Positions 1,851-20,003 of a stretch of 20,463 nucleotides of DNA are shown here, one piece after another (the first letter of the stretch is position 1; each line of letters opens with the position of its first letter). Location of the stretch: NCBI GenBank assembly GCA_963792415.1, contig CAWBVY010000002.1, forward strand, positions 1-20,463, read 5' to 3'. Position numbers and translations under genes: made by a program. Origin of the DNA: Candidatus Deferrimicrobiaceae bacterium. GTDB lineage: Bacteria; Desulfobacterota; Deferrimicrobia; Deferrimicrobiales; Deferrimicrobiaceae. The notes beneath the pieces are model-generated. The model did not search any database. It saw nothing but the letters and a program-made list of their open reading frames with translations, and was not told where the DNA came from.

Positions 1851-1990
1851 CTTTTTCAAGCACTGGCGGCGGTTTATCGTTGCATGGAGTTCCCATTCAC
1901 AACGTCCTGCTGGATCGTGATAAACGATTTTTTCCAGTCGATGCGATCCCAGGCCAACGCGATCAATTCAGCACGCCGTGAAATGTGAGA

Positions 1991-2019
1991 AGAGGGCGGG
2001 GCCACAAACCCCGCCCTCT
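1991..2019 (-). terminator. Hairpin, putative terminator of the 2254..2033 gene
   Basis: Perfect 11-bp stem AGAGGGCGGGG/CCCCGCCCTCT with a 7-nt loop, 13 nt past the stop; only a weak U-tract. Confidence 0.5.
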
Positions 2020-2032
2020 ATTGATACGGCCG

Positions 2033-2254
2033 TCAAGGTGCAAGTCTGACCTTGCTTCCAGGCCCCACCAATACATTCTTTTCAAGAACGACATGAAAGG
2101 CCTTTTCCGGATTCCCCGCGAAGGCCTTCCTCGCAACTTTTAACAACCCCAACAAGTTATTTGGCCGGTACTTGTTCCTACGCTCAAAAATACTGCCGAT
2201 GGGTGTCTTCTCCCGTTCGACATAGTTCACGGAATAGACCAGGTAACTATACAT
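2033..2254 (-). CDS. Small hypothetical protein, 'ERR-NN' family copy 1 (73 aa)
   Basis: ATG 2254 preceded by GAAGGAGG; MYSYLVYSVNYVEREKTPIGSIFERRNKYRPNNLLGLLKVARKAFA aligns with the ORFs at 3397 and 4635. Confidence 0.75.
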   Translation of the reverse strand: MYSYLVYSVNYVEREKTPIGSIFERRNKYRPNNLLGLLKVARKAFAGNPEKAFHVVLEKNVLVGPGSKVRLAP

Positions 2255-2338
2255 GATGACTCCCTCCTTCCTCCTCTCGGGGGCCATGGAGACAACTTCC
2301 TCTTTCCTCTTGGTGCCAATGGATCTTCCAACACCCAT

Positions 2339-2347
2339 ATTATAACA
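2339..2347 (-). promoter_or_regulatory. Extended -10 promoter (TGnTATAAT) for the 2254..2033 gene
   Basis: Minus strand reads TGTTATAAT about 85 nt upstream of the start codon. Confidence 0.45.
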
Positions 2348-2449
2348 CCAATATAAATCGGTCATCGTGGCGTAATGGAATCGCTCAATAGCGCGGAAAC
2401 GGGAAGGGCCGGAGGGATGTCCCCCGGCCCCCTAAGGAGAGGGAGGTTC

Positions 2450-2806
2450 TCATTGGAATTCGACAATCCTTATTATCTGTGCAACAGGGATGGCAACCTG
2501 ATTGGTGAAGGCATTCTGGGGGGGGACGGAAACAAGCGATCCATCGCTAACGCCGGTGACGTTGAAAGTACCGGTTTTATCATTGAACGAGAGAAAAGTA
2601 CCATCAAACGCAAGTTCTTCCGATGTGTTGTAGGTGGCCACTGCCCCCCCCGCCACATAAAATATCTGCTTCTTCACCCCGGCATTGAACAAGGATTGCG
2701 GTAACGCATTCGCCTTGGTACCCCACCCAAAGTCCCAGTTCCAGTTCGAGCAACTGGCAAATACCATCACCGTAAACACGACCAGCGCAACAAGAAGTCG
2801 CTTCAT
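2450..2806 (-). CDS. Hypothetical lipoprotein (118 aa)
   Basis: MKRLLVALVVFTVMVFASC: basic N-terminus, hydrophobic core, lipobox FASC. G-rich SD upstream; beta-rich mature part. Confidence 0.7.
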   Translation of the reverse strand: MKRLLVALVVFTVMVFASCSNWNWDFGWGTKANALPQSLFNAGVKKQIFYVAGGAVATYNTSEELAFDGTFLSFNDKTGTFNVTGVSDGSLVSVPPQNAFTNQVAIPVAQIIRIVEFQ

Positions 2807-3095
2807 GACGCCCCCCTTTGGATATAGTCACGGAGATGTCAACGACAAGTGCGAGTAAATCCACCATGTCCCCTGGATGCCGGGAAGTCAACACGATAGA
2901 TGAAGGTCTGATCTTCACGTTACTCGACCTGTCCAAGATTCATTTTCCAAAAATGGTCCGCCCTCGGAAGGGGTCTTATATTCAATAGGCGACAAGGCCG
3001 CGGGGTCCTACCCTCTCTGCCAAATAAAGATTCCATCCTGCTTTGCCGAAAGAATTCGGAGAGGGCAAATAATTGCCGGGGCGTGGGGGGGGAAG

Positions 3096-3353
3096 ATGAC
3101 TTACGCGGAATTAGAGAATCATATCCTTCTGGCCGACCGAATGGTTGTAAGTTGCGCACCGAGGAAAGCGGAGTACGGGAGAGGATATATTGAAGGGATC
3201 AAAATTCATTTCAATAACCCTCGGTCGACATCCCCCCCCGATCATTATTCAATCGCTGATATCGCCCGTAGAAACGGCAGCCGCGATGTTCATGCCTACG
3301 CTCGTGGGTACCGTGATGGCTGCAAGGGTTTGAAACCGGAACATATCGGCTGA
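3096..3353 (+). CDS. Hypothetical protein (85 aa) with two YxRGYxxG motifs
   Basis: ATG after a G-rich SD-like tract; internal repeat EYGRGYIEGIK / AYARGYRDGCK; co-oriented with the next gene. Confidence 0.6.
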   Translation: MTYAELENHILLADRMVVSCAPRKAEYGRGYIEGIKIHFNNPRSTSPPDHYSIADIARRNGSRDVHAYARGYRDGCKGLKPEHIG

Positions 3354-3396
3354 ATTGATTATATTTTGAAGAAACGGTAACAGGGATGGTGAGAAT

Positions 3397-3609
3397 GTGA
3401 AAACCTACGCTGTCTATCGTCTCGGTTACTGGAACAATAAGCTGGAACTCGTGGGGAAGGTGGTGGAACGTCGGAAGGAAGAGCGGAAGAACAATGCCGC
3501 GGATATGTTGCGATGGGCCCAAAAAATTTACGCAGCTTCCTCGATTGATTCAAGCATATTCATCGTCAAGGAGGGTTCCTCCGAGGGGCCTATATTTGGG
3601 GGCGCATAG
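3397..3609 (+). CDS. Small hypothetical protein, 'ERR-NN' family copy 2 (70 aa)
   Basis: GTG start; KTYAVYRLGYWNNKLELVGKVVERRKEERKNNAADMLRWAQKIYA shares the family motif. Confidence 0.75.
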   Translation: MKTYAVYRLGYWNNKLELVGKVVERRKEERKNNAADMLRWAQKIYAASSIDSSIFIVKEGSSEGPIFGGA

Positions 3610-3776
3610 GCTGTCCTCGGCCTTGGGAAGGGCATCGCTGCAGGCTACCTGGTATCCGGTTGCGCCTGTCGAACCGGAAGTGGCGCGAACTGCCCGGGCG
3701 GTACATCTTCGGACTTCAGGAAACGGAACAACCCTCCATCACAGGCGGTGCACTTCCTCCAGACAACCGCCGCCTC

Positions 3777-4157
3777 TCACCCCGACAAGATTCCTTCTTC
3801 AATTCCCCTCTGAACGAACTTCTCCAATTCCTCGATGTAATGACGCGACAAACTGATCAGGTCTTCAGAGTGTCGTTGCGACGAACCGGCCTGGTCTTCA
3901 GCTCCGGGCCAGTCAGCGAACCGATGCCGAAACGCTGTCTGACTGGTATAACTCAATACAACATTCCCGGCGATGGTCTTTTCATACCATTGTTGCCCCC
4001 CCTTCGACTTTGATTCCTCCCGGGCATATTGGGTTACAGACTGGGCCGCCGCCAGGAACGCGCTCAAGTAGTATCGGAACGTCCCGCGGTCGTGTAACGA
4101 CTCTTCCATCTTAGCCAGAAAGAACTTTGCCTCCCCAATCTTGTATCGCTCGTTCAT
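3777..4157 (-). CDS. Hypothetical helical protein (126 aa), possibly HEPN-like and internally shortened
   Basis: Amphipathic helices 'KIGEAKFFLAKMEE' and 'FRYYLSAFLAAAQSVTQY'. No RxxxxH motif seen where I would expect it. Family link is from recall only. Confidence 0.55.
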   Translation of the reverse strand: MNERYKIGEAKFFLAKMEESLHDRGTFRYYLSAFLAAAQSVTQYAREESKSKGGQQWYEKTIAGNVVLSYTSQTAFRHRFADWPGAEDQAGSSQRHSEDLISLSRHYIEELEKFVQRGIEEGILSG

Positions 4158-4392
4158 CTCAATTCACGCCCCCCTATCGAGATAATTCCAACATCCCAAC
4201 CGCTTCCTCCACGGCCTCGAGAATCTGCTCCCCCGACATCGGGAACCGATTCGTCGGCGCACCCTCTGAAACTTTACGGCAGAACCGGGTGGAATCTTCA
4301 GGATGTAATTGTTACTTCACCCCCCTCGGCATGGCACTTTCTGGTCGGTGTAGTGTGGGATATTGCTTACAAACCGAGGGTCGAGGGCACGT

Positions 4393-4437
4393 TTCGTAAT
4401 CGGCGGGTCGTCGGTTCCATCCCGACCGTCGGCTCCA
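4393..4437 (+). repeat. attR-like degenerate copy of the tRNA-Thr 3' half
   Basis: TTCGTAATCGGCGGGTCGTCGGTTCCATCCCGACCGTCGGCTCCA vs 1806-1850: 4 mismatches in 45 nt; starts at the anticodon loop and ends at CCA; no 5' half upstream. Confidence 0.9.
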
Positions 4438-4634
4438 TTCAGGCATGTTATTGCGTACGTAAAGGCGATCCCTTGGAAGGGATTGTTCCGGGAAAATTTT
4501 TTCCCATTAAGGCTCTGCTTTTTCACGAATGACAACGACGGACCATATCATTCTTCTTTATAATGAACTACATGCATTCACACAGTCGATGGGTGCGAAT
4601 ATTGCTGGAATGAACAGGATCGGGGGAGAGCGCG

Positions 4635-4925
4635 ATGAAAAAGATCCCGGACGACGATTGGTTGATGAAAGGATCTGCCTGGAACGAGGAGGAGTTGCTT
4701 CCAATAGCGTTGGGCAAGAAGCCGGAACAGGTACCGGTAAAAACCGTCATGGTCTACTGGATGGACAAGAAGAACATGCGGAAAGAGCCCATCGGGATCC
4801 TCATGGAGCGACGAAAATCAGAACGGGAAAACAACAACGCTATCGGCATGTTGCGCCTTGCTCGGAAATCATTCGCCAGAACGGAGGAAGAGGCTCAAAG
4901 GATTCTCATCGGAGATTTCGTTTGA
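4635..4925 (+). CDS. Small hypothetical protein, 'ERR-NN' family copy 3 with N-terminal extension (96 aa)
   Basis: GGAG SD before ATG; VKTVMVYWMDKKNMRKEPIGILMERRKSERENNNAIGMLRLARKSFA. Confidence 0.75.
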   Translation: MKKIPDDDWLMKGSAWNEEELLPIALGKKPEQVPVKTVMVYWMDKKNMRKEPIGILMERRKSERENNNAIGMLRLARKSFARTEEEAQRILIGDFV

Positions 4926-4961
4926 TCTCCGCCCGTCGATCCGATCCCGGCCTCGGGCAGG

Positions 4962-5444
4962 TCAGATCGCCACCCGGACCGCGGTCGGCGAGAGGATCCG
5001 CGCCAGGTCCGGCGCGCTCATCCCCACCAGGAACCCGCGGCGCCCCCCATTGATGTAGATCTTCGACAGCCCGAGGATCGTCCCCTCCATGTAGATCGGC
5101 ATCGAATGCCTCGTCCCGAACGGCGAGATCCCCCCGACGATGTACCCCGAGTGCCTGTGCGCGGCCTCCGGAGAGCACGGCGTCACGCTCTTCGCGCCGA
5201 TCGCACGCGCGAGCTCCTTCGTCGACACCTCGCGGTCCCCGTGCATCAGGACGACCAGCGGCCTCTTCCGTTCGTCCTCCATGACGAGCGTTTTCACCAC
5301 GCTGTGCTCATCCACGCCGAGTTCCCGCGCGGAGACGGCCGTCCCGCCCTTTTCCTCGTAGTCGTACGGGTGCTCGGTGTACGAAACTCCGGCCGCCCGC
5401 AGGGCGCGGATCGCGGCCGTGACCGGCATCTTCTCCTTCGCCAC
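4962..5444 (-). CDS. ybaK: Cys-tRNA(Pro) deacylase (YbaK/EbsC family)
   Basis: Motifs 'VVKTLVM' (conserved Lys), 'SGYIVGGISPFG' (GxxxGGxSP) and 'IYINGGRRG'; 160 aa. Confidence 0.93.
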   Translation of the reverse strand: MAKEKMPVTAAIRALRAAGVSYTEHPYDYEEKGGTAVSARELGVDEHSVVKTLVMEDERKRPLVVLMHGDREVSTKELARAIGAKSVTPCSPEAAHRHSGYIVGGISPFGTRHSMPIYMEGTILGLSKIYINGGRRGFLVGMSAPDLARILSPTAVRVAI

Positions 5445-5548
5445 CCTGCGCGATCCCCCTCTCTTCCCGGACCGTCCTGTTGCGATGCCCCTGGGTGCGA
5501 TCCATTGTATTATACGCGCGGAGGCGAAGACGGACGGGAGGGTTCCTC

Positions 5549-8589: not shown

Positions 8590-8676
8590 TTGCTGTTTTC
8601 ACAACTCCATTCCTGGGATACGATATGGACCGGAAGGCACCCGGGGTGCCCCTATAAGTCGGATTTGGGAGGCCGC

Positions 8677-10446
8677 GTGAGTTCGAATCCCCCCAGCATC
8701 TCTCCCCACGCACCCGAAAAGAACGGCTTGTTCCTCGACGACGGTTCCCGTGTCGCCGTGATCGGCGGCGGACCCGCGGGCTCCCTCTTCACCTATTTCC
8801 TCTTCGAGATGGCGGAGCGGATCGGGATGGAACTGGCCGTGGACATCTACGAACCCAGGGACTTCACGAAAAACGCCCCGAGCGGGTGCAACATGTGCGG
8901 GGGCATCGTCTCCGAATCGCTCGTCCAGTTGCTGGCCACCGAGGGGATCAACCTCCCTTCCAGCGTCGTGCAGCGGGGGATCGACTCGTACGTCCTCCAC
9001 ATGGACGTGGGGACCGTGCGGATCGAGCCGACGCGCCGGGAAAAACGGATCGCCGCCGTCTACCGCGGCGGGGGCCCGCGCGGAGTCGTCGAGTCCCGCT
9101 GGGACAGCTTCGATGCGCACCTCCTCAAACTTGCGAAGGAGCGGGGGGCGCACGTTTATCAGGAACGCGTTGAGGGGATCGACCGGAACGGCGGGAAGCC
9201 GCGCATCACGACGAAAAAGGGGACCTCCCCGGAATACGAGCTCCTCGTCGGCGCGGTGGGCGTGAACACGGGCGCCCTCAAACTCTTCGAAGAGATGGGC
9301 GCGGGCTATCGGGCTCCCGGGCTGACGAAGACGTACATCTGCGAGTTGTTTCTCGGAGAGAGGACGATCAAGACGTACTTCGGAAACGCGATGCACATGT
9401 TCCTCCTCAACCTCCCCCGCCTCGAATTCGCCGCGCTGATCCCGAAGGGGGATTACGTGACGATGGTGATGCTGGGCACCGGGATCGACAAATCCCTCGT
9501 CGATGCGTTTTTCTCGGCCCCGGAAGTGCGCAAGTGCTTCCCCTCCGACTGGTCCCCGCCGGCTGATTTCTGCCGCTGCTCCCCCGCCATCAACATCTCG
9601 GCGGCGGTCAAGCCGTTCGCCGACCGGATGGTGCTCATCGGCGACAGCGGCGTGAGCCGTCTCTACAAGGACGGGATCGGCGGGGCGTACCGGACCGCGA
9701 AGGCGGCCGCGAGAACGGCGGTGTTCGAAGGGGTGGCGGAGGAGGATTTCCGGAAAGGCTACCTCCCCGTCTGCCGGTCGCTCTCGGTGGACAACGGGAT
9801 CGGGAAGGTCGTCTTCGGTATCACGACCCTGATCCAGAAAACGACCGTGCTCCGGAAGGGGCTGTTGCGGATGACCGCGGCGGAACAGGATGGAAGCCAG
9901 TGGAAACCACGGATGAGCGACGTCCTGTGGGACACCTTCACGGGGAGCGCCCCGTACAAGGATGTCTTCCGCCGGTCGCTCCACCCCGTTTTTCTCGGAC
10001 ACCTTTTCTACGAAACGTTGACGGGAATGCTCCCCGCGGGCCGGGAGGGCGGGAAGAAGGAGGACAAGGTGCCATTCGGAAAGACGGGCGAACTGGGCAA
10101 GATCTACAATTCGGGGGAAATCATCGTCCGGCAGGGGGACGCCGGCGAGTGCATGTACTTCATCCAGTCCGGCAACGTCGAAGTGATCCACGAGAGCGAC
10201 GGAAAGGAAGTGAAGCTCGCCGAGCTGGGGCACGGGGAGTTCTTCGGGGAGATGGCCCTCTTCGAGAAGGGGGTCCGCTCCGCCACCGTCCGCCCGCTGG
10301 GCGAAGTGCGGGTCCTCTCCGTCGACAAGCGGCTGTTCCTCCGGAAGATCCACGAGGACCCTGCGCTGGCCTTCCGCATCATGCAGAAGATGTCCCGCCG
10401 GATCCGGGACCTCGACAAGGAACTGGGGAATCTGCGTTCGGAGTGA
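8677..10446 (+). CDS. FAD-dependent oxidoreductase (geranylgeranyl reductase-like) fused to a C-terminal cNMP-binding domain (~589 aa)
   Basis: GTG 8677 after GGGAGG; IGGGPAG dinucleotide fold, CNMCGG, 'LIGDSG..LYKDGIGGA'; C-terminal phosphate-binding cassette 'FFGEMALFEKGVRSATV'. Confidence 0.85.
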   Translation: MSSNPPSISPHAPEKNGLFLDDGSRVAVIGGGPAGSLFTYFLFEMAERIGMELAVDIYEPRDFTKNAPSGCNMCGGIVSESLVQLLATEGINLPSSVVQRGIDSYVLHMDVGTVRIEPTRREKRIAAVYRGGGPRGVVESRWDSFDAHLLKLAKERGAHVYQERVEGIDRNGGKPRITTKKGTSPEYELLVGAVGVNTGALKLFEEMGAGYRAPGLTKTYICELFLGERTIKTYFGNAMHMFLLNLPRLEFAALIPKGDYVTMVMLGTGIDKSLVDAFFSAPEVRKCFPSDWSPPADFCRCSPAINISAAVKPFADRMVLIGDSGVSRLYKDGIGGAYRTAKAAARTAVFEGVAEEDFRKGYLPVCRSLSVDNGIGKVVFGITTLIQKTTVLRKGLLRMTAAEQDGSQWKPRMSDVLWDTFTGSAPYKDVFRRSLHPVFLGHLFYETLTGMLPAGREGGKKEDKVPFGKTGELGKIYNSGEIIVRQGDAGECMYFIQSGNVEVIHESDGKEVKLAELGHGEFFGEMALFEKGVRSATVRPLGEVRVLSVDKRLFLRKIHEDPALAFRIMQKMSRRIRDLDKELGNLRSE

Positions 10447-10488
10447 TCCACCCGCTCGAGCGACGGACAGGAAAGGAGGGTCTCGAAG

Positions 10489-11256
10489 TTGAGATTAAAG
10501 GTATTGGGCGCCGCCGGTTCCGAGGTCCCCGGGCACAACTGCCCGGCGTTCCTGATCGACGAGAAGATCCTCCTGGACGCGGGGACGATCGCCCTGTCCC
10601 TGAACATCCGCGAGGAGCACAGCCTGGGGTGGATCCTCCTCACGCACGCCCACCTCGACCACATCAAGGGGATCCCGTTCCTGCTCGACAACCTGGTGAC
10701 CCGCAGCACCGGGAACACCATCACCGTCGCCAGCGGGAAGGACGTCCTGAACGACCTGAAGAAGAACATCTTCAACGACAGGATCTGGCCCGACTTCTCC
10801 CGGATCCCGACGCGCGCACACCCGGTGCTGCGGTACAAGAACATCGGTACCACGCGGCCCTTCCAGATCGACGGGTACCGGATCACGATGGAGAAGGTCC
10901 ACCACACCGTCCCGGCGTACGGGTACATCGTAGAGAAGCCGGGGAACAAGGCAATCGCCTACACGGGCGACACGGGGCCGACCGACCGCTTCTGGGAGAG
11001 GATGGCCGCCCACGACGTGAAGTACCTCATCACGGAGACCTCCTTCCCCAACCGGCTGGAGAAGCTCGCCCTGACGACCGGCCACCTGACCCCCTCCCTG
11101 CTTAAGGGGGAGATCGCGAAGATGTCCCCGCCGCCGGAGAAGATCTTCATCATGCACCTGAAGCCGCAGTTCCTGAATGAGATCGAGATGGAGATCCGGG
11201 CGCTCGATCACGACAACATCGAGTTCCTGAAGGACGGAGAAGTGATCCTGGCCTAG
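10489..11256 (+). CDS. Metallo-beta-lactamase-fold 3',5'-cyclic nucleotide phosphodiesterase (class II-like)
   Basis: TTG start after AAAGGAGG; LDAGT, THAHLDH (HxHxDH), 'IFNDRIWPDF', YTGDTGP, 'ETSFPN', 'GHLTP', 'MHLKP'. Confidence 0.85.
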   Translation: MRLKVLGAAGSEVPGHNCPAFLIDEKILLDAGTIALSLNIREEHSLGWILLTHAHLDHIKGIPFLLDNLVTRSTGNTITVASGKDVLNDLKKNIFNDRIWPDFSRIPTRAHPVLRYKNIGTTRPFQIDGYRITMEKVHHTVPAYGYIVEKPGNKAIAYTGDTGPTDRFWERMAAHDVKYLITETSFPNRLEKLALTTGHLTPSLLKGEIAKMSPPPEKIFIMHLKPQFLNEIEMEIRALDHDNIEFLKDGEVILA

Positions 11257-11263
11257 CCCGCCG

Positions 11264-12748
11264 TCAGGAGATCCCGAAGAATCTCATCAACTTCCGGAGG
11301 AGCGCGTCGTGGAGGGACGACGCTTCGTCGGCAACCTTGCGGACCTGCTGCACGGTCAGGATCTTCTGGAGGCGGTCCCCCAGCGCGGAACTCAAGCCCT
11401 CCAGGACGGACGGGTGCGAACGGATGATCGGAGCGATGGCACCCTTCGAAATCTCGGCGAGCCAGACCTCGTCGACCGCGGCGACCGTCGCGCGGCGCTT
11501 CTCCCCGGTGAGGAGCGACATCTCCCCGAAGAAATCGCCCCCGGACAACGATCCGACCGTCTGCCCGTCCACGGAAACCTCGAGGTTCCCGCACAGGTTG
11601 ATGAAGAGGGAGTCCCCCTCCTCGCCCTGGCGCACGACGATCTCCCTGTTTCCGTAGACGCGCAGCCGGACGTGCGGCAAGAGGGCGTCCAGTTCCTCCT
11701 CGCCCAGGGGGGAAAGGATCTCGGCCCGGCGGAGGCTCCCGCGGATCGCGGCGGCGTCCATCCGGAACGGCGGGGCCGGCTCCTTCCGCACGATCTCCCG
11801 GTGCGGGTACGGGAACGTCTGCCCCTCGCGCGTGACGGCGTACCAGACGCGCCGCAGGACCTTGTCGCGGGCCTCGAGGAGGTTCGCGTACTCCTCGAGG
11901 TAGAAGCGCAGGTTGTAGTGGATGCCGCTGTCCATGAACCCGTCGACCTTCACCCAGGGCGCCGGCGTCGACAGGATCCCCGGCTCGTCCCGGAGGGCGT
12001 CGAGCAGGATCGCCTTCGCCCGTTCGGGGGGGAACGCGTAATCGAGGAGGACCGTGAGGGTGACCGGCGGAGGCGCACCCGGACGGCTCCCGATGGAGTG
12101 CACCACGTTCTGCGTCATGTAAAGGTTCGGGACGTGGACCAGGTGACCCTCCAGGGTCCGGACCGTGGAGTACCGGAACCCCACGTTGACGATCTCGCCC
12201 GTGATGTCCTTTTCCTTGATCCAGACCCACGTGCCGCGCCGGAACGCTTCGTCGGCCTGGATCTGGAAGCCGGAGACGATGTTGGCCAGCGAGGTCTGCA
12301 TCGCGAACGCGAGGGCGGCGGTGAGCACCGTGGTCGTCGTGAGGATCGACGTCATGTTGATTTCGAAGATCACGCGCAGGGCGGTCGCGCCGAAAAACAG
12401 GTACACGCCCAGCAGGAGAATGTCCCGGAGGAACGACGGGACATTCCCCTTCATCCGGCGGTGAAGATAGGTGTCCACGAGCAGGTAGGCGACCAGGTTC
12501 GCCCAGCAGAAGAGCATGATCAGCCCGTGAATCTCCAGTATGTAGGGGGTGTATTCCACCGGGACCTTGAAGGGTCCCACGACGTACGCAAGAAAGATCC
12601 CGAAAAGGGCCGCCTTGATCGTCAACCAGACCTTGGACATGGAAAGGTCCATCCGCGTCACGGCGCGGACGGCGGCGATCAGGAGGAAGAACGCGAGGGG
12701 GACCAGCAGCAGGAGGGTCTCGTTGGACAGTAGGAATTTGAACGTCAT
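11264..12748 (-). CDS. MscS-family mechanosensitive channel with C-terminal cNMP-binding domain (~494 aa; start uncertain)
   Basis: N-terminal TM helices; 'AFAMQTSLANIVSG', 'GEIVNVGFRYST', 'VHVPN', 'FPYP'; C-terminal 'FFGEMSLLTGEKRRATV'. Confidence 0.9.
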   Translation of the reverse strand: MTFKFLLSNETLLLLVPLAFFLLIAAVRAVTRMDLSMSKVWLTIKAALFGIFLAYVVGPFKVPVEYTPYILEIHGLIMLFCWANLVAYLLVDTYLHRRMKGNVPSFLRDILLLGVYLFFGATALRVIFEINMTSILTTTTVLTAALAFAMQTSLANIVSGFQIQADEAFRRGTWVWIKEKDITGEIVNVGFRYSTVRTLEGHLVHVPNLYMTQNVVHSIGSRPGAPPPVTLTVLLDYAFPPERAKAILLDALRDEPGILSTPAPWVKVDGFMDSGIHYNLRFYLEEYANLLEARDKVLRRVWYAVTREGQTFPYPHREIVRKEPAPPFRMDAAAIRGSLRRAEILSPLGEEELDALLPHVRLRVYGNREIVVRQGEEGDSLFINLCGNLEVSVDGQTVGSLSGGDFFGEMSLLTGEKRRATVAAVDEVWLAEISKGAIAPIIRSHPSVLEGLSSALGDRLQKILTVQQVRKVADEASSLHDALLRKLMRFFGIS

Positions 12749-12814
12749 GGCCCGATCCGCTTCTCCAGGGGTGGTGCAGGAATTGTCCGTCATCCGGATG
12801 GAGGAAAGCAAGGC

Positions 12815-12856
12815 CACGACAACAAAGAGTTCCTGAAGGAGGGGGAGGTGATCCTG
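12815..12856 (+). repeat. Direct repeat of the phosphodiesterase 3' end (11209-11250)
   Basis: CACGACAACAAAGAGTTCCTGAAGGAGGGGGAGGTGATCCTG vs CACGACAACATCGAGTTCCTGAAGGACGGAGAAGTGATCCTG: 37/42 identical; HDNKEFLKEGEVIL vs HDNIEFLKDGEVIL. Confidence 0.85.
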
Positions 12857-12866
12857 ATCTGGAAGG

Positions 12867-12898
12867 AAAAGGGGGAGAGCGGCCGGCCGCCCTCCCCC
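12867..12898 (-). terminator. Rho-independent terminator of the FecR-TPR-barrel gene
   Basis: Minus strand GGGGGAGGGCGGC-CG-GCCGCTCTCCCCC followed by TTTT, about 30 nt after the stop at 12930. Confidence 0.7.
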
Positions 12899-12929
12899 CG
12901 AATATCACGTTACCTGCCCTGCTGGTTCC

Positions 12930-15900
12930 TTAAATCGACAGCGTGATCCGGGCGTAAAACATCCTTTGAGGCTGGATCGTAGGATTCGCAATGTCGGTGT
13001 CATAAAACTGGAACTGTTTGTCAAACAAGTTGTTCGCTCCGACCGAAATGAATCCGTACCGTTGCGGCAAGCGATAACTGATTGCGGCATCGACCAGCCA
13101 GAATCGATCACTTCCTGATTCAAAGATTCCCTCGGGTGCATCCAATCGGTTGAACTCTCCGTTTTGATCGACGAATGTGGCTCTCAACATCGCATTCAGC
13201 CCGGAGGGGTGGAAGAAACCGGCGCCAAGAGGCATACGCTGGGTTTTCAGATTTTTTACTCCGATATTAAACTGGTCTTCCCGTTCAATCTTTTCGTAAG
13301 AATAGGATGCGTTCAGAGCAAACCAAGCGTGCGGTGTCCAATATAGATAAGCTCGAGCCATTTTTTCTTTCCAGTCCGCCTTCTCTTCATAAATGGCTGG
13401 AGGGTCAACAGTGCCATCGATGGACGTGTAGGGAACCGTAAGGTCTCTGTGCGTATACTCTGCTCCCCCGTAAATACTGCGTGTGAATTTTTGATCTAAA
13501 CCAATACCATAGCGCCATGATTCCGTTCCATTGGGATCATCGAAAAACTGATTGAACCCAGCCACCTGCGTTGGTTCGAGAGTCTGGTTTGCGACAAGCG
13601 TTCTCTTCAACACCTTGAATGCCGCAGCGCGCAGGGTTGTATCCGGAACCGGATTCCACGTAATTCCAAATTTCGGATTGAACTGGTTTATATCATTATA
13701 TATATCGGATGTTGTATTGTAGAAATCGGCACTTGCCCCAACAGTAAATGTTACGTTCTTTATATAATCCAAATATGAATAAACATACCCATTATAGTGA
13801 TGAACTTTTTGGCTAATTTCCTGTTGATCTTGGAACTCCATGGGAGGATCTATTGGGATCAAAATATCTGTTGTAATTGCCTCATCTGATTTAACTAGAA
13901 AGTATCCACCGCCACTTACGAGTTTGAATTTTTCTGATCGCAATATGTGTTGTGCTTCCACGCCATGAGACCATTGTTTCGTCTGATCATCAAAACCTGT
14001 TACAAAAAAATCACCTGGAGGCGTGAAATTAACTTTATCGTCTATTTTCTTATACATATATGAAATTAGAAGATCTGAACCAGGGTTAAACGAATGATGG
14101 AAACCGAGACGTATTGATGGAGATTTATCTTCTTGTTGAAGGTCTTTGTAATAATCATCCGGGAAGAACCTTAACTGGGTATCATTGTTTTTAATCTTTC
14201 TATATCGATATTCAGCTTGCATGCTTGTTCTTGGAGAAAAATCATACTGAAGAAATGCATTTATAATATCATCCTTTAAATCATTGTTTTCACGAAAACC
14301 ATCCGTTTGATAGTGATATTGCCCAAGACTGAAAGAAACTTTTTTATGGAGGCCGGAGAATACCAGGTCATCGCCCCGCGTGCCGTGTTCACCGAGGATG
14401 CCGTTTGCCTGCAGCGCCACCCGGTTCCGTTCGAAAAGAGGGTTGAACTCACTGAAGGAAAGTCCCGATGGGCCTCCGCCTGCTACAACGAAGAGATTGC
14501 TCTCCGCGAGGTTCGGTTGCAATGGGGAAATATTGGTCGGCTGTAATAATTGAGCTTGCAGTAGTTCGCTCACCCTGGCAATCTCATGCCTCGGCAAAGC
14601 GGAATACGTGTCGGCCAAGAACCGGTGTGCGGAATAGTTGGACGGATCGTAATTGAGGGACCTCCATCCCTCTACCAGGGCGCGCTGTTGAAAACCCAGG
14701 TCCGTGTAAATTCTGGCAAGGCTGGCTTCCCGTGCCGCGACGTCCTGGTCCAGCAACAGGCGCGAACGGTAGACCGCCCGGTTATCATTCAGCTGGATGG
14801 CTTTCTCCATATCCTGCAGTGCCTCGACCGGCCGATTCGTGGTCTGCTTTCCGATCGCACCGTAAAAATACGGCGTGGGATCGAATGGATCCATGCTTTT
14901 TGCCATGTCGTACTGGCCCGCCGCCAGCTTGTCCCGTTTTTCTTCGAAGTAGGCTTTCCCCAGGTAACTGCGGACGAGGGAATTGTTCGGATCGAGGCTC
15001 ATGGCAATCTCGATTTCCCTTCTTCCCTCCTCCAAGTTCCCGTCACGGATTTTCGCCAGGCCCAGGCCCAGCCGCGGGAGAGGATCCGCATCATCGAGCT
15101 TTATCGCTTTTTCAAAGGCCTCCGTGGCCTCCTTCGTCTCGATCCGGGTCAGGTGGGAAAACCCCAGGACCGTCTGCGTCCTCGAGAGGTCGGGGCGCAG
15201 CGCCGCCGCCTTCTTCGCCGAATCCAGGGACATGTCGAGGATGCCGAACGATTGCTGCAACTCGGCCAGCCGGGCCCAGGCGAGGGCGTTTTCGGGCGCC
15301 AGCTTCACGGCTTCCTCCAGGCTGCCCAGCGCTCCCTGGAGGTCGAAGTGCGCCTGCTGGGCATAAGAGAGGGAGATCCGCGCCGTCGCGGATTTCGGGG
15401 CCGACTCCACCGCTTTCCTGGCGATTTCTAGGGCCTTCTCTTTCTCGTTCTGCGTGACGGCGATCATCGCCTGGAGCGCGAAGGCGTCGCTGTTCTTCGG
15501 GTCGAGTTTCTGCGCCTTGTCGATATCCGCCGTTGCCTCGTCGACCCGGCCGACGGTCAGCAGCTGCGACGCGCGTGCGGTGTAGAAGCGCGGATCGTTT
15601 CCGCCTTCCTTCAGATCCTGGGGAGGGGCATCGAGGACGGGCGGATAGTACAGCGCCCACTGGACCGCATCCCGCGGGCGCACGACGACCCGGTACACCG
15701 GGGCATTCCCCGCCTCGGCCACCGCCGACTGCCCCGTGACGACCGGGAGGCCGCCCGCCGCGTTCGATGCCAGCACCTTCCCCTCGAAGACGGTCAGGTC
15801 GGTCTTCCCTTCCTCGACCCGGAGGAAGAACTCCGTCCCCTCCACGCCGGCGTTCACTGTCGCGGTGCGCACCTCGAGGTTCCGCGTGACGCGACTGAAG

Positions 15901-16253
15901 AAGAGCGCGGCCCCGCCGATCATGTCGACCAGGGAGGTCCGCTCGTCCTTCATTCCGCCCAGGGTGACGGTGCTGTTCTGGTCGAGGCGCAGGACAGGGT
16001 GGTTGTACAGCGCGATGTCCGCCCGGCTTTTCCTGTCCGTCCGGACCGTGTCCCCCGGGCAGTACGTCTCGTTGAGTTTCGCCGGTTCCCAGAGGGTTTG
16101 CCCCGCCCTCTTGACCTCCACGACCCCCTGGGCCGAAACCACCTTTCCGGCCCATTTCTCGCACGTAGCCGCTTGCGCGATGCCGGTGCACAGCATCATC
16201 GCGATGGTTGCACATGCCAGAAGACTCACAACGTACGGGTGCGGTCGCTTCAT
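12930..16253 (-). CDS. Outer-membrane receptor: signal peptide, FecR domain, TPR repeats, TonB-dependent-receptor-like beta-barrel (NsrA-like), 1107 aa
   Basis: SD AAGGAGG; signal peptide ending AQA; FecR motifs 'GDTVRT..SRA' and 'VRTATVNAGVEGTEF'; many TPR units (e.g. 'LEEAVKLAPENALAWARLA'); barrel with 'FNPKFGITW' and 'VGANNLFDKQF'. Confidence 0.88.
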   Translation of the reverse strand: MKRPHPYVVSLLACATIAMMLCTGIAQAATCEKWAGKVVSAQGVVEVKRAGQTLWEPAKLNETYCPGDTVRTDRKSRADIALYNHPVLRLDQNSTVTLGGMKDERTSLVDMIGGAALFFSRVTRNLEVRTATVNAGVEGTEFFLRVEEGKTDLTVFEGKVLASNAAGGLPVVTGQSAVAEAGNAPVYRVVVRPRDAVQWALYYPPVLDAPPQDLKEGGNDPRFYTARASQLLTVGRVDEATADIDKAQKLDPKNSDAFALQAMIAVTQNEKEKALEIARKAVESAPKSATARISLSYAQQAHFDLQGALGSLEEAVKLAPENALAWARLAELQQSFGILDMSLDSAKKAAALRPDLSRTQTVLGFSHLTRIETKEATEAFEKAIKLDDADPLPRLGLGLAKIRDGNLEEGRREIEIAMSLDPNNSLVRSYLGKAYFEEKRDKLAAGQYDMAKSMDPFDPTPYFYGAIGKQTTNRPVEALQDMEKAIQLNDNRAVYRSRLLLDQDVAAREASLARIYTDLGFQQRALVEGWRSLNYDPSNYSAHRFLADTYSALPRHEIARVSELLQAQLLQPTNISPLQPNLAESNLFVVAGGGPSGLSFSEFNPLFERNRVALQANGILGEHGTRGDDLVFSGLHKKVSFSLGQYHYQTDGFRENNDLKDDIINAFLQYDFSPRTSMQAEYRYRKIKNNDTQLRFFPDDYYKDLQQEDKSPSIRLGFHHSFNPGSDLLISYMYKKIDDKVNFTPPGDFFVTGFDDQTKQWSHGVEAQHILRSEKFKLVSGGGYFLVKSDEAITTDILIPIDPPMEFQDQQEISQKVHHYNGYVYSYLDYIKNVTFTVGASADFYNTTSDIYNDINQFNPKFGITWNPVPDTTLRAAAFKVLKRTLVANQTLEPTQVAGFNQFFDDPNGTESWRYGIGLDQKFTRSIYGGAEYTHRDLTVPYTSIDGTVDPPAIYEEKADWKEKMARAYLYWTPHAWFALNASYSYEKIEREDQFNIGVKNLKTQRMPLGAGFFHPSGLNAMLRATFVDQNGEFNRLDAPEGIFESGSDRFWLVDAAISYRLPQRYGFISVGANNLFDKQFQFYDTDIANPTIQPQRMFYARITLSI

Positions 16254-16311
16254 TGTCGGCTCCCTCCTTCTTTATCGTTTATCCTTAGCCCTCCGGTTCT
16301 CAGCCGTTCCG

Positions 16312-18575
16312 CTACTTCTTGTCCATGAGAACCACCCCGTCCCACGGTTCCGCGGGGGGGGTGGTGTTGTACACCTCGCACAGGCTTAAGTAATAACGTG
16401 AAGGCTCGTCCTCTCCCAGCGCTTCCAAAGCCCAGCGGAATTTTTCCTTTGCTTCCTCCCAGGATTTCTGCTTGAAGGCGGCAAGAGCCTCGGCGAATAC
16501 CCGGCACCCCTCGCGCTGTTTCCCGTCCGCCTCTTCCAGGCGGCAGATCAGCTCGTGGATCGCGATCGGCATGCTCTTCCCTTTCAACCGGAACGACCCG
16601 AGCTCCCTCGTCAACAGGCCTTCCAGCTGGTCTATCACCTCGGAGGACACCAGGACGCGCGTTCCCAGGTGCTTGTTCATCCCCTCGATCCGTGACGCCG
16701 TGTTGACGATGTCCCCCATGACGGAGTGCTGGTAATGGTCCCCGCCGCCGATGTTCCCGAGGAAGATGTCCCCGTAATGCAGGCCGATCCGGGTGTTGAG
16801 GCGGTGCGGATCGGATGGCCCGTACAGCCGGTGCACGGCCCGGTTGATGTCGATCGCCGCGAGGCACGCCTTGTCCCGAAGGGCCGCGTCGGGGGTCGCC
16901 GAGACCCAGATCGCCAGCATGGAGTCCCCGGCGAGGTTCGATACGACCCCGCCGTGCTCCTTCACCGGCCGGAACATCGTCTCGTAGTACCGGTTCATGA
17001 ACGCGCCGAGCTCCTTGGGGTCCAGGGTCTCCGACAACGTCGTGTAATGCTCCGCGTCCGTGAACAGGCAGACGCCGTAGACGGACTCGCTGACGGCGCC
17101 GAGCTCCCCGAGGTTCTCCACCAGCTGGTCGACGACGTTCTTGGGGAGGTAATGCTCGAAGGCCTTCCGGACCTTCTCCTGCTCCTTCTTCGTGTCGAGG
17201 TAGTTCCAGATCACCCCTCCGAAGAATGCCAGCGGAGCCTGGAAAAAGAGCGGGACCGCCACGGGGTACCAGAGGTTGGCCGTCTTGAACTGAAACCACG
17301 CGAGGGCGAGATAGAGCCCGCTCAAGCCCACAATGCCCAGCGCCGCGATCCCGATATGGAAATACCTGCCGAGGAACCCCATGACCACGCCCCAGAGGAC
17401 AACGATGAAGACCAGGGGAAGCAGCCCGAGCGGCTTCACCGATGTATCGTCGAGGATGTTGGAGAATGCGGTGGCGGAGATCTCCACCCCGCCGATGAAG
17501 ATTCCGTTCGCCTGGGAGAATACCGTGTAGAAGCTGTCCTTCCGCTCCGCCAGCATCGCCTCCGACAGCCCCACGAAGACGGCCTTCTCCTTCAGGTCGA
17601 TCTTCCGGTCCCCCGCCGCACCGTCGCGGATCTGGAGCGCCTGGTGATACGGAATCGTCGTGATTGTGCGAGGCCTGGACCGTAGTAGTTGATGAACCGG
17701 TTGTTCGACCCCTCGTACACGCGGATCAGCGCCTCGACCAGCCGTTGCCTGCCCGCATCGCCGGCGGGCGCCTTCGAACGTTCGAGCTCGCGCCGCATTC
17801 TCTCCGCGATCAACGGATCGGCCAGGAACACCTCCCGGATCTTTTTCATCAGGTCCCTGACGGTTCCCGTGGCGATGGCCGCCGACATGTCGCGGGGGAA
17901 CTTCCTCGCCTGCGCCGGGCTCGCCTTCTCGAGCAGGCGGATGAAATCCCCGTAGGCCGTCGCCCCGTAGATCTGGAGCATCACCATCGGAACGGAGGGA
18001 GAGTCCCCTGCGCCCGGCTCGAACGTGAAGAACTGGCTCACCTTGAAAGGGATCCGGGGAAGCGTGAACGGCGCCGTGGCAGCGGCGGCATCGGTGAAAA
18101 GCTCGATCGGCGGCACCACCTTGACGACGTTGTGGCTCGAGGACTCGGGAGACCCGTCCGCGTCCGGCAGAAGAATGTCCTTGGTCCGGATCGGCTCGGT
18201 GAGGACGACGTTTCGCGCCTTTTTCATGGCGTTCGCAAAGGCGACGTCGTCCTTCGCCACCCGCGGCTCGATGAAATGGAGGTCGAAGGATACGACCCTG
18301 GCGCCTTCCCGGGCCAGGATCTCCGTCAGGCGCGCATGGAGAGAGCGGGGCCACTTGTCGGGGTTGTCCGGGATGCCAAGCTGCTCGGAGGACTCCCTGT
18401 CAATGCTGATGACGACGGCTTCCGGAGGTGGCCTGGCCGCTCCTCTGAACCTGAACAGCAGGCCGAGACCTGTGTCTTCCTCGAGACCCATCGCGAATCG
18501 GAAAGGGCTTGCGACCAACCCGACGACCCCGACGAGGAAGCCGAGGATGACGGCTTTCAACAAGCGGGATTTCAC
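16312..18575 (-). pseudogene. CHASE2-domain class III adenylate/guanylate cyclase, split by a frameshift at ~17674-17675 (~753 aa if repaired)
   Basis: 5' part (GTG 18575; 'VVISIDRES', 'WPRSLHA', 'FDLHF', 'INYYGP') and 3' part ('PRTITTIPY', 'VFVG', 'GVEISAT', TM helices, 'LFTD', 'GDSML', 'RIGLHYG', 'GDIVNTASRIEG') are in different frames. Removing 2 nt gives NYYGPPRTI. Could be a sequencing/assembly error. Confidence 0.8.
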
Positions 18576-18666
18576 CGTAACACCAACATGTAAATTCGCA
18601 CCGATTCACCAACACGACTGGCGGAAAAACCGGGAAACCGGGCAGAGGATAACAACAACGAAACAT

Positions 18667-18700
18667 GGTCAGGCAGGGCCATTTCTAGCCCTGCCCGACC
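18667..18700 (-). terminator. Hairpin between the secreted-protein gene and the cyclase gene (terminator or transcript-stabilising stem)
   Basis: Minus strand GGTCGGGCAGGGC-8 nt loop-GCCCTGCCTGACC (13 bp with one G-U), followed by ATGTTTCGTTGTTGTT. Confidence 0.55.
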
Positions 18701-18770
18701 CTTTCGAATCGTAGAAACAACGCGTAATTACGAACAATTTCAGACAATAATCCATATATTCGTTATTACC

Positions 18771-19661
18771 TTAATTCAGTCTTATACAAACTCCTGTCCT
18801 TGGATTACAGTAATAAGTTGAACCTGCAGAATTATCATCAGATATAACAACGGATGGGCAATCCTGTCCTGGAACTGAAATGTCGGCTAAGACCCCTTGA
18901 GAAAACGTTAATGAACCAAATGGAACATATTTAGGATCACCAGGTCCAATTACTCCTGCTGCTGGATTAGAACAGTCCTTTAGCACTTGCTGACACTGTG
19001 TTGCCGGGTCTGTTACAGTACAAAAATCATATTCAACACCGCCTGGCGATACTCCCGAATATCTCGTTAAGGAAGTAACAACTCCTTGCGCGCGGGGGGG
19101 AGGGGGTTCCGCGCAACCGGGACCTTTGATGTTTCTGCAATAATAGTAGGCATTGCCCGACTTGAATTGCATCGGGACGCCCCAATCCGTCGGGATCGGC
19201 ACGGCGTTGTCCGTGCCGAAACCAAAGGTGGTCGAACCGATGCTGGTGACCGTCACCAGGTCGTTATAAACGTCCCACACCCCGAAACCATTCCAGTTGC
19301 TAGATAAGCCGGTAGCGGGGGCTGAGTAAAGCTGAAAGGTTTCACCGGGAATCGCGGAATAATTATTACCGGTATAGCCGATGGAAGGGATTGAATCGCA
19401 GGCGGGGACGAGGATAGCAAACTGGGTACCCTTGGTCGCGAGTCCACTGATGGTGTATTTCCATATTGTCTTCCCGCCTTCGGTGTAGGGCTCAGTGGCA
19501 ACCACAGTAGCCCCAATGGGCTCCCCAGCTGAATTGACCAAGGTACAGGTAGGTGTGGGTTGTGGGATCGCAGCAGCAATCCCCGCGCCGAGAAACAAGG
19601 CCAACATAACTGTCAATGCCGCTACCGCAACCGGTGCCGATTTTATCCTTCGCTTTTCCAT
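18771..19661 (-). CDS. Secreted cysteine-rich protein of unknown function (~296 aa, 10 Cys)
   Basis: ATG 19661 after GAAGGAGGTGG; Sec signal peptide (MEKRRIK...LALFLGAGIAAA); beta-rich N domain with 4 Cys, EPPPPR linker, C domain with 6 Cys ending YYCNPRTGVCIRLN. Confidence 0.8.
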   Translation of the reverse strand: MEKRRIKSAPVAVAALTVMLALFLGAGIAAAIPQPTPTCTLVNSAGEPIGATVVATEPYTEGGKTIWKYTISGLATKGTQFAILVPACDSIPSIGYTGNNYSAIPGETFQLYSAPATGLSSNWNGFGVWDVYNDLVTVTSIGSTTFGFGTDNAVPIPTDWGVPMQFKSGNAYYYCRNIKGPGCAEPPPPRAQGVVTSLTRYSGVSPGGVEYDFCTVTDPATQCQQVLKDCSNPAAGVIGPGDPKYVPFGSLTFSQGVLADISVPGQDCPSVVISDDNSAGSTYYCNPRTGVCIRLN

Positions 19662-20003
19662 CTCCACCTCCTTCTCCAACAAGAGAAATTGTTGGCGCGC
19701 CGTCAGTCCCGACACGCATGAACCCATCCGAATCCCTTCGCCTCCTTCCCTTTCTGTCATCGATTAACGAGACTTCAGGCGTTCTCGTGAGGCAAACACC
19801 CCCGGCAAAACGCAGTTTTTAAATTGTGTTGTGTTTGCATGGACACCCCCTCAATGACATATTGGGGCCGGATTCAAAAATTGTCCGCGTTTGATTGACG
19901 TCGTCCGGCGCCAACGTCATAGAGCATTACTGGCGTTAACCGGTTTATTTAATAGTAAATAGTAAATTTTCACACAAAATATGCAATTGGAACGAAGATT
20001 TTA

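Follow-up and report, generated by a model that had tools for sequence, protein, structure and literature searches.

An NsrA/CyaK-like receptor and cyclase gene pair among cyclic-nucleotide-domain genes of a Candidatus Deferrimicrobiaceae genome

Introduction

Do six adjacent genes of a Candidatus Deferrimicrobiaceae bacterium (assembly GCA_963792415.1) form one complete signaling circuit that leads from the cell surface to cyclic-nucleotide effectors in the cytoplasm? The DNA in question is a stretch of 20,463 nucleotides (nt), positions 1 to 20,463 of contig CAWBVY010000002.1, which is referred to here as the window. An earlier note, made from the letters and a list of their open reading frames (ORFs), had described a self-contained circuit consisting of a secreted protein, an outer-membrane receptor with FecR, TPR, and barrel parts, a CHASE2 cyclase, a phosphodiesterase (PDE) of the metallo-beta-lactamase (MBL) fold, and two effectors that bind cyclic nucleotide monophosphates (cNMPs), namely an MscS-type channel and a flavoenzyme, and it had likened the locus to NsrA/CyaK of Sinorhizobium meliloti. 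The analysis presented here gives a narrower answer. In the explanation to which we give a somewhat better than even chance, the barrel protein and the cyclase are a trans-envelope sensor pair of the NsrA/CyaK kind, to which PDE and flavoenzyme-cNMP outputs were added in this lineage. The frame of the cyclase gene is broken in this copy.

Results

Gene content of the locus

Pfam and NCBIfam scans of the window ORFs found all six genes, with the domains that the earlier note had assigned to them, where it had placed them (Table 1). Two genes on the forward strand (flavoenzyme and MBL hydrolase) converge with four on the reverse strand, which in order of transcription encode the secreted orphan protein, the cyclase, the barrel protein, and the MscS-cNMP channel. 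The window has a G+C content of ~64% with several lower-G+C stretches. Its lack of a Crp-type DNA-binding regulator was likewise confirmed, as no Crp-type helix-turn-helix domain occurs in the 27 window ORFs scanned. Four genes with cyclic-nucleotide domains within 10 kb exceed what is expected by chance.

Table 1. Features of the locus, with positions in the window. Strands are forward (+) or reverse (-); aa, amino acids.
Feature	Position	Strand	Description
Flavoenzyme-cNMP gene	8590-10446	+	618 aa; Pfam cNMP_binding and TIGR02032; alternative GTG start at 8677
MBL-fold hydrolase gene	10489-11256	+	255 aa; 42 nt downstream of the flavoenzyme gene; Lactamase_B_2 and PDEase_II
MscS-cNMP channel gene	11264-12817	-	517 aa; Pfam MS_channel_2nd, MS_channel_3rd, and cNMP_binding
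Terminator-like hairpin between the barrel and MscS-cNMP genes	12870-12899	-	Consensus match
FecR-TPR-barrel gene (NsrA-like)	12930-16253	-	1107 aa; FecR, many TPR models, TonB_dep_Rec_b-barrel
Cyclase, C-terminal part	16312-17691	-	End of CHASE2, three membrane helices, class III cyclase domain, C-terminal extension
Cyclase, N-terminal part	17592-18575	-	First membrane helix and most of the periplasmic CHASE2; out-of-frame residues from the break to the stop at 17592
Frame break in the cyclase	17674-17675	-	Two extra bases relative to relatives
Terminator-like hairpin between the orphan and cyclase genes	18667-18700	-	Consensus match
Orphan Cys-rich protein gene	18771-19760 or 18771-19661	-	329 aa, or 296 aa from 19661

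The FecR-TPR-barrel protein and its kinship to NsrA

In the barrel protein, Pfam places FecR at aa 68-160, TPRs at approximately aa 220-500, and TonB_dep_Rec_b-barrel at aa 650-1076. No Plug domain (PF07715) was found among the 17 Pfam families matched, and the segment before the barrel consists of TPRs and low-confidence helices in the AlphaFold2 (AF2) model. This model has 22 strands at aa 612-1106, with a predicted local distance difference test (pLDDT) score of 62.9 overall and ~70-90 in the barrel (moderate confidence), and its best Foldseek matches are the TonB-dependent transporters FptA, FpvA, OprC, and FecA at 11-14% identity. As modeled, the protein looks like a transporter-type barrel in which the N-terminal plug and signaling domain are replaced by a TPR stalk that ends in a FecR domain. 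The family is large, with at least 6255 proteins at E ≤ 1e-3 among 8000 scored candidates, and occurs in Deferrimicrobiota, Nitrospirota, Thermodesulfobacteriota, Methylococcales, Rokubacteria, Brocadia, and other groups; some source annotations label the relatives 'TonB-dependent receptor'. The closest whole proteins (P0002 and P0003) share 85-87% identity with the window protein.

The gene itself is a mosaic. The G+C content at third codon positions (GC3) is 0.25-0.59 in the barrel half (12930-14450, aa ~600-1107) versus 0.82-0.94 in aa 1-400, and it is 0.83-0.95 in neighboring genes. Relative to the barrel protein of the closest genome, a Candidatus Deferrimicrobium sp. (locus L001), the FecR part is 92-96% identical, the TPR part 74-86%, and the barrel 26-66%; at about aa 600, identity drops from 84% to 48% and GC3 from about 0.85 to 0.25-0.43. 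A search of 5.8 billion proteins with aa 600-1107 alone returned only P0002 and P0003 at 80-83% identity, followed by a plateau at ≤57%, and identified no donor of the barrel half. The mosaic GC3 and the drop in identity therefore suggest either a cassette exchange or very fast divergence of the surface-exposed barrel part.

The proposal of an NsrA/CyaK-like pair was borne out. A tblastn search of plasmids found 67 Sinorhizobium records. On S. meliloti plasmid CP140944.1, the annotated cyaK has directly upstream of it the gene of a 1197-aa 'FecR domain-containing protein', which ends where cyaK begins. This protein was taken as NsrA because it adjoins the annotated cyaK and because the barrel of NsrA lies at aa 600-1200 according to the published description (PMC7529298). 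BLASTP aligned the window barrel protein to it with 24% identity over aa 10-458 (E 2e-17), and the two barrel parts with 23% identity (E 1e-6); the window cyclase and CyaK are 26% identical (E 2e-23). A rhizobial homologue (L073) has the same Pfam pattern as the window barrel protein and a CHASE2-cyclase directly downstream. In a maximum-likelihood tree of cyclase domains, two deep clades were each recovered with 100/100 support, and CyaK is in the clade other than that of the window. By sequence comparison, the kinship of the window pair to NsrA/CyaK is real but distant.

In both systems, the gene of a CHASE2 class III cyclase has as its neighbor that of a FecR-TPR-barrel protein of 1100-1200 aa, and the sequence similarity spans the N-terminal and barrel parts. 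On the other hand, the cyclase gene comes first in the window and the barrel gene first in rhizobia, the substrate position is Lys in CyaK and Asn in the window cyclase, and the latter is frameshifted. The outputs also differ: in S. meliloti the output is the Crp-like regulator Clr, whereas the window has no Crp-type gene nearby and carries its cNMP domains on an enzyme and a channel.

Conservation of the gene neighborhood

The L001 genome has the cyclase, barrel, PDE, and flavoenzyme-cNMP genes in the same order and orientation as the window. Identity to the window is 76-83% for the cyclase overall (76% over aa 3-300 of the N-terminal part and 81-83% in the C-terminal part), 67% for the barrel protein, 91% for the MBL protein, and 86% and 94% for the FAD (flavin adenine dinucleotide) and cNMP parts of the flavoenzyme, respectively; a short-chain dehydrogenase further out is 90% identical. 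There is no MscS gene between the barrel and MBL genes of L001, and upstream of its cyclase a BTAD-AAA-TPR protein is encoded where the window has the orphan. In this lineage, four of the six genes are therefore kept together as a block.

A wider comparison was made by scanning species-representative genomes with a 21-sequence alignment, which gave at least 587 confirmed matches; 72 loci from many phyla were kept. Six-frame ORFs of these loci were searched with window-type CHASE2, cyclase, cNMP, and MBL profiles and with single MscS, secreted-protein, and FAD sequences. The PDE count refers to MBL-type hydrolases only (model from 9 sequences) and not to PDEs of other classes, such as the metallophosphoesterase or HD type. 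CHASE2 was found in 47/72 loci, the cyclase domain in 42/72, the cNMP domain in 22/72, the MBL hydrolase in 8/72, and the FAD enzyme in 5/72. Amongst the 34 loci with ≥4 kb on both sides (“well-flanked”), a CHASE2 gene adjoins the barrel gene in 29, a CHASE2-cyclase is present in 25, a cNMP gene in 15, and an MBL gene in 6; all 6 well-flanked MBL loci also hold a CHASE2-cyclase and a cNMP gene, so that cyclase, cNMP, and MBL occur together in 6/34.

CHASE2 genes lie ≤2.5 kb from the barrel gene in 42 of 48 cases, and at 21 loci the cyclase gene, on the same strand, is directly upstream with 18-216 nt between the two, which is also the arrangement of the window. The cNMP genes near the barrel gene number 15, 10, 2, and 1 in successive 2.5-kb bins (25/28 within 5 kb), which over the 72 loci corresponds to densities of 5.4 and 4.6 genes per 100 kb up to a distance of 5 kb versus 1.1 and 0.6 further out. 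The binomial p-value of this clustering (4.9e-4) is optimistic since the loci are mutually related.

In most loci the output domain of the CHASE2 partner of the barrel protein is a cyclase; six loci have a SpoIIE/PP2C phosphatase instead, and one has a Ser/Thr protein kinase. The non-cyclase CHASE2 loci are L008, L009, L020, L030, L033, L044, and L061, the last being the kinase locus. In loci lacking CHASE2 (L036, L040, L048, L053, L055, and L067), the barrel gene is followed by an uncharacterized ORF of 220-255 aa, after which a longer ORF comes in all but L067. Two of the longer ORFs were scanned (L040 and L048); both encode HAMP-PAS-GGDEF-EAL proteins, and this domain content hints at a cyclic di-GMP output for the same receptor family where CHASE2 is absent.

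The cNMP-domain neighbors vary by locus and include a FAD enzyme fused to a cNMP domain or beside a cNMP-GAF or cNMP protein, glutaminase-cNMP and SulP-STAS-cNMP proteins, a sodium/sulfate symporter, sigma-54 activators, a kinase, a histidine-kinase-type ATPase (HATPase_c) protein, and one Crp-like regulator. The modules of L004, L006, L015, and L056 have such a pair as neighbors, namely a FAD enzyme gene and, at its side, a cNMP or cNMP-GAF gene that is separate from it. A literature search for surveys of cNMP-domain architectures gave nothing relevant. What recurs is a barrel/CHASE2 sensor that has recruited cyclic-nucleotide effectors locally, and not a fixed set of six genes. Of the co-occurrence expected for six families, the CHASE2-cyclase/barrel pair is recurrent and cNMP and MBL genes are found in some loci, while the MscS channel and the secreted protein are found in none of the 72. 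What stands of the self-contained circuit is that the MBL/PDE and flavoenzyme-cNMP genes plausibly belong to it, given the same four-gene arrangement in L001, the joint occurrence of cyclase, cNMP, and MBL genes described above, and the repeated fusion of close flavoenzyme homologues to cNMP domains described below.

The flavoenzyme and the MBL-fold hydrolase

The flavoenzyme has a cNMP-binding domain at aa 506-589 (Pfam cNMP_binding, 83.9 bits), whereas its N-terminal part gives a weak DAO match and a match to the geranylgeranyl reductase family (TIGR02032, E 3e-11). Homology to relatives starts near aa 44-49. The AF2 model (pLDDT 89.3, predicted template modeling score 0.90) was compared with the PDB by Foldseek and matched, at 13-18% identity, flavoproteins such as 3nix, kynurenine 3-monooxygenase, halogenases, FixC, and geranylgeranyl reductase. 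The protein is a predicted FAD-dependent oxidoreductase of the p-hydroxybenzoate-hydroxylase fold with a C-terminal cNMP-binding domain. No substrate could be assigned, as the sequence search of solved structures found nothing and the fold search gave only the general flavoprotein fold. The family of the FAD part comprises 1099 cluster representatives at E ≤ 1e-3, and the 15 best hits include 10 homologues of more than 580 aa, 9 with one or two cNMP domains and 1 with a FecR domain. The latter (P0133, 993 aa) is a close homologue of the FAD part with a FecR domain at aa 676-768 in place of the cNMP domain, which may reflect either a genuine fusion or a gene call that ran through neighboring genes. 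Four cysteines (C71, C74, C299, and C301, numbered from the start at 8677) are invariant in 40 aligned sequences of the family and may form a metal or redox site. The phosphate-binding cassette of cNMP domains has a Gly-Glu and Arg motif, and by eye both cNMP domains of the window, in the flavoenzyme and in the MscS channel, keep these residues.

The MBL protein matches Lactamase_B_2 (59.8 bits) and PDEase_II (PF02112; 40.4 bits, cut-off 23.7), the latter over 59/340 positions, and its best solved relative is yeast PDE1 (4ojv, E 6.9e-6). Its translation contains the motif THAHLDH, which fits the signatures of both class II (HXHLDH) and atypical class II ([T/S]HXHXDH) PDEs, the atypical class being defined for Rv1339, YfhI, and Corynebacterium glutamicum CpdA (PMC9293780). 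In addition to the motif, it shares the MBL fold with these enzymes. It differs from class II PDEs in being short, in the partial coverage of the PDEase_II model, and in falling far below the cut-off of the NCBIfam PDE model, and its PDE activity is predicted. Judged by these matches, it is probably a class II-type cyclic-nucleotide PDE.

The CHASE2 cyclase

Pfam detects Guanylate_cyc (48.2 bits) and CHASE2 (32.3 bits) in the ORF at 16312-18354 and CHASE2 (54.2 bits) in the N-terminal ORF at 17592-18575, and the best PDB matches of the C-terminal part are the adenylate cyclases bPAC, CyaB, and OaPAC. An alignment to bPAC and 40 relatives shows that the two metal-binding Asp residues, the Asn, and the Arg of the Guanylate_cyc domain are present; in such domains the Asn and Arg act at the transition state. 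The gene product is thus a CHASE2 class III cyclase, as the earlier note had it, with the qualifications that it is interrupted in this copy and lacks the substrate-position Lys that CyaK and bPAC have.

A second cyclase clade (L018, L021, L023, L024, L028, L035, L041, and L064) shows a different order of barrel gene, uncharacterized ORF, and cyclase gene. In its cyclases the Lys/Glu substrate position is Glu and the second position is Gly, a pair that we take to be guanylate-cyclase-like. In L018 and L028, glutaminase-cNMP genes lie directly upstream of the barrel gene alongside these cyclases; the same placement was observed in L011 and L017, two loci that yielded no CHASE2 gene.

Observations that weigh against a working circuit

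Several observations count against a sensor pair with added PDE and flavoenzyme outputs, beginning with the cyclase gene itself. The reading frame of its N-terminal ORF is lost just past INYYGP, where a DNA alignment with L001, L014, L015, L019, and L032 reveals two extra bases: the window reads CCA GG CCT versus GGn CCn CCn CGC in the relatives. All five relatives are without these bases; in relatives the N- and C-terminal parts are in frame as a single ORF of ~750 aa, and CHASE2 and cyclase occur within one ORF in 37 related loci. As read from the alignment, the break would be either a true mutation or an assembly error. Since the frame is broken by the two-base insertion, the circuit in this copy is either inactive or mis-sequenced at the break. 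A programmed frameshift was considered and rejected, as the site CCA GGC CTC shows no slippery heptamer by eye and the relatives are unbroken.

The locus may be a decaying remnant, in which case the cyclase would be a true pseudogene and signaling by the module would have ceased in this organism, an explanation that we consider a serious candidate, short of an even chance. It is favored by the insertion relative to the five aligned relatives and by the 37 loci with an unbroken ORF; moreover, a two-base insertion is unlike a single-base homopolymer miscount, and the barrel half of the partner gene has a very unusual composition. However, the lesion is single, and all other genes of the cluster are intact with the high GC3 typical of the genome. 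An assembly error could also account for the break. In addition, S. meliloti CyaD1 without its CHASE2 domain makes cAMP constitutively (PMC5498481), and therefore, by analogy, the C-terminal fragment of the window cyclase could still be active if it is translated.

The identity of the nucleotide is a further point. In class III cyclases, the residue three positions before the second metal Asp motif specifies the substrate, with Lys for adenylate and Glu for guanylate. Lys occupies this position in bPAC and CyaK, whereas the window and L001 have Asn, and N, G, or D is found in all 24 rows of the window-like clade. Because Asn stands where CyaK and bPAC have Lys, the product of the cyclase cannot be named from the sequence, and a match of nucleotide between cyclase, PDE, and effectors is putative.

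The remaining points concern the neighbors. Against NF041851, the NCBIfam model of cyclic-nucleotide-degrading PDEs, the MBL protein scores 48 bits (cut-off 400) over 227/253 positions, and it scores slightly higher on the RNase Z models of NCBIfam than on this PDE model. As they lie on the opposite strand from the cyclase, the PDE and flavoenzyme genes do not share its transcript. Of the 25 well-flanked CHASE2-cyclase loci, 14 have no cNMP gene in reach and 19 no MBL gene. The cNMP genes are equally common beside non-cyclase CHASE2 partners (4/9 versus 11/25, Fisher p 1.0), and the enrichment of MBL genes with the cyclase is not significant (6/25 versus 0/9, p 0.16). In a careful cyclase tree, the loci with flavoenzyme or PDE neighbors are no better clustered than shuffled labels (134/500 shuffles were as low). 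A single origin of these loci was therefore rejected: an 8-row group in a quick tree, with a support of 93 in the Shimodaira-Hasegawa-like approximate likelihood ratio test (SH-aLRT), was not recovered by the careful tree. Finally, homologues of the MscS domain and of the secreted protein were each found in 0/72 loci.

Several of these results would fit a reading in which the cyclase-barrel pair alone is functional, and the PDE-like, flavoenzyme-cNMP, and MscS-cNMP genes are independent of it and respond to cyclic nucleotide from other cyclases of the cell, or in which the MBL protein is no PDE. The separate transcription units, the convergent orientation, and the hairpins agree with it, as do the cyclase loci without cNMP or MBL genes, the frequency of cNMP genes beside non-cyclase partners, the comparable fit of the MBL protein to RNase Z and PDE models, and the absence of the MscS gene from the 72 loci. 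Nevertheless, L001 keeps the four-gene arrangement at 76-94% identity though both outer flanks differ, the density of cNMP genes decays with distance from the barrel gene, 6/6 well-flanked MBL loci also have the CHASE2-cyclase and a cNMP gene, and a PDE is reported in the equivalent Campylobacterota cluster (PMC9239204). We regard independence of the neighboring genes as unlikely on balance.

That the barrel protein is instead a TonB-dependent nutrient transporter with Fec-type signaling to an extracytoplasmic function (ECF) sigma factor is highly improbable, for although it has a FecR domain and a 22-strand barrel with TonB-dependent transporters including FecA as best structural matches, and some relatives are annotated 'TonB-dependent receptor', there is no Plug match, FecR is part of the barrel protein itself rather than of an anti-sigma factor in the inner membrane, the 27 window ORFs scanned contain no domain of the sigma-70 family, and the conserved neighbor is a CHASE2 protein in 29/34 loci.

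The MscS-cNMP channel and the orphan protein

The MscS-cNMP protein matches MscS/YnaI over aa 66-350 and the cNMP domains of PKG/PKA over aa 354-460 in the PDB. Its gene has the architecture of the bCNG family, which combines an MscS core with a C-terminal cNMP domain and is found mostly in cyanobacteria according to a review (PMC13591265), and gating by cyclic nucleotides is predicted. The window channel has the same order of MscS core and C-terminal cNMP domain; it differs in coming from a Deferrimicrobia-like genome, and its channel function and ligand binding are putative.

The orphan protein has no match in Pfam, NCBIfam, or PHROG. It is Cys-rich, with an N-terminus that resembles a signal peptide by eye. 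Only 2 homologues (46-47% identity) were found among 5.8 billion proteins with the 296-aa form as the query (P0121), and the best protein-atlas score, 0.82, is below any meaningful level. The gene looks like a recent import because its GC3 is 0.50, compared with 0.83-0.95 in neighboring genes and about 0.85-0.95 in the genome, and because it has only these two distant homologues. The protein is probably not part of the module, and the earlier view of it as a circuit member did not survive, since it is an orphan that recurs in none of the 72 loci.

Both genes are set apart from the cyclase-barrel pair, which is bracketed by terminator-like hairpins (consensus matches only). The hairpin on the channel side has a 13-bp stem with 10 G-C pairs followed by TTTTCCTTCC, and the one on the orphan side has a 15-bp stem with 10 G-C pairs and a weak T tail. 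With the hairpins and the absence of both genes from all 72 related loci, the six genes do not constitute one conserved circuit as had been claimed.

Discussion

If the locus is a sensor pair with added outputs, the following sequence of events can be proposed. The 1107-aa protein would be exported, and its plug-less, 22-strand barrel resembling TonB-dependent transporters would insert in the outer membrane, with the TPR stalk and the N-terminal FecR domain reaching into the periplasm. There, the FecR domain would influence CHASE2, the periplasmic domain of the class III cyclase in the inner membrane, whose gene lies 58 nt upstream, such that an event at the cell surface changes cyclic-nucleotide synthesis in the cytoplasm. 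We know of no described mechanism by which a signal passes from an outer-membrane barrel to a CHASE2 domain. Published genetics of S. meliloti shows that signal perception needs both nsrA and cyaK (PMC7529298). A direct contact was modeled with FecR (aa 29-215) of the L001 barrel protein and periplasmic CHASE2 (aa 28-380) of the L001 cyclase, using a 20-row alignment for each partner; the complex prediction gave scores of 0.00 and 0.00 against a mark of 0.32, which for the FecR domain alone, modeled without the TPRs, speaks neither for nor against binding.

The convergent two-gene unit would have joined the cyclase-barrel pair in Deferrimicrobia and some Nitrospirota. The class II-type MBL phosphodiesterase would reset the signal, and the cNMP domain would make the activity of the FAD-dependent oxidoreductase the output, with no transcription factor involved. 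The MscS-cNMP channel of the bCNG type may be a further effector, specific to the window and on its own transcript, whereas the secreted orphan would be an unrelated neighbor.

Three known systems resemble parts of this arrangement. In Campylobacterota, a cluster with a CHASE2 adenylate cyclase, a cAMP phosphodiesterase, an outer-membrane protein with a FecR domain, and a TPR protein is described in PMC9239204, whose authors infer a single pathway. The window has the same set of functions, all four within 8 kb. There, the FecR outer-membrane protein and the TPR protein are two genes, whereas in the window they are one polypeptide, and the description of the cluster in that source mentions no cNMP-binding effector. 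The idea of such a circuit is therefore less novel than the earlier note assumed, since a comparable cluster is already in print. In Burkholderia and Pseudomonas, an operon encodes a LysM-FecR protein and a CHASE2 histidine kinase (PMC5192318). There too, the gene for an exported FecR-domain protein adjoins that of a CHASE2 membrane sensor; the FecR protein bears LysM and no barrel, and the output of the CHASE2 protein is a histidine kinase. With FecA-FecR-FecI of Escherichia coli, the window shares a 22-strand barrel of the TonB-dependent-transporter type, a FecR-family periplasmic domain, and a signal from the outer membrane inward. Its FecR domain is, however, fused to the barrel via TPRs, no plug was detected, and the inner-membrane partner is a CHASE2 cyclase and not an anti-sigma/sigma pair.

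To our knowledge, NsrA of S. meliloti is the only member of this receptor family that has been studied, by genetics only. A bolder proposal, which we put forward as doubtful, is that FecR-TPR proteins with a plug-less, transporter-like barrel constitute a very large and almost unstudied family of trans-envelope receptors. Such receptors would work with interchangeable inner-membrane transducers (CHASE2-cyclase, CHASE2-PP2C, CHASE2-Ser/Thr kinase, and HAMP-PAS-GGDEF-EAL proteins where CHASE2 is absent), and the barrel would be an exchangeable specificity cassette. In the branch of the window, a cyclase with an Asn/Gly/Asp pocket would make a nucleotide other than cAMP, which directly switches a flavoenzyme and a channel and not a transcription factor.

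The combination of a cyclase, a phosphodiesterase, and a cNMP-regulated enzyme in one branch would, if true, be a rare case in which bacteria control metabolism by cyclic nucleotides with no regulator of the Crp type. Should nothing but the cyclase-barrel pair prove to be linked, the locus would be a new but ordinary NsrA/CyaK-type member whose cyclase is broken. Novel points are the occurrence of the fused receptor in new phyla, the range of outputs coupled to CHASE2, the recurrent flavoenzyme with its presumed cNMP regulation, the non-canonical cyclase pocket, and the mosaic barrel. The conserved FecR-TPR part with a hypervariable barrel, and the cognate CHASE2 partners with different outputs, provide testable material.

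Outside the locus, the window contains a tRNA-Thr (CGT) gene at 1776-1850, followed by ~3.5 kb of ~51% G+C (region 1776-5450). The ORFs of at least 85 aa in the ~51% G+C stretch 3′ of the tRNA gene have no Pfam match. At the high-G+C edge of this stretch, the ORF at 4962-5444 on the reverse strand matches phrog_17858 (function unassigned in PHROGs) with an E-value of 1.7e-25, and the low-G+C stretch may be the remnant of an element that was inserted at the tRNA gene.

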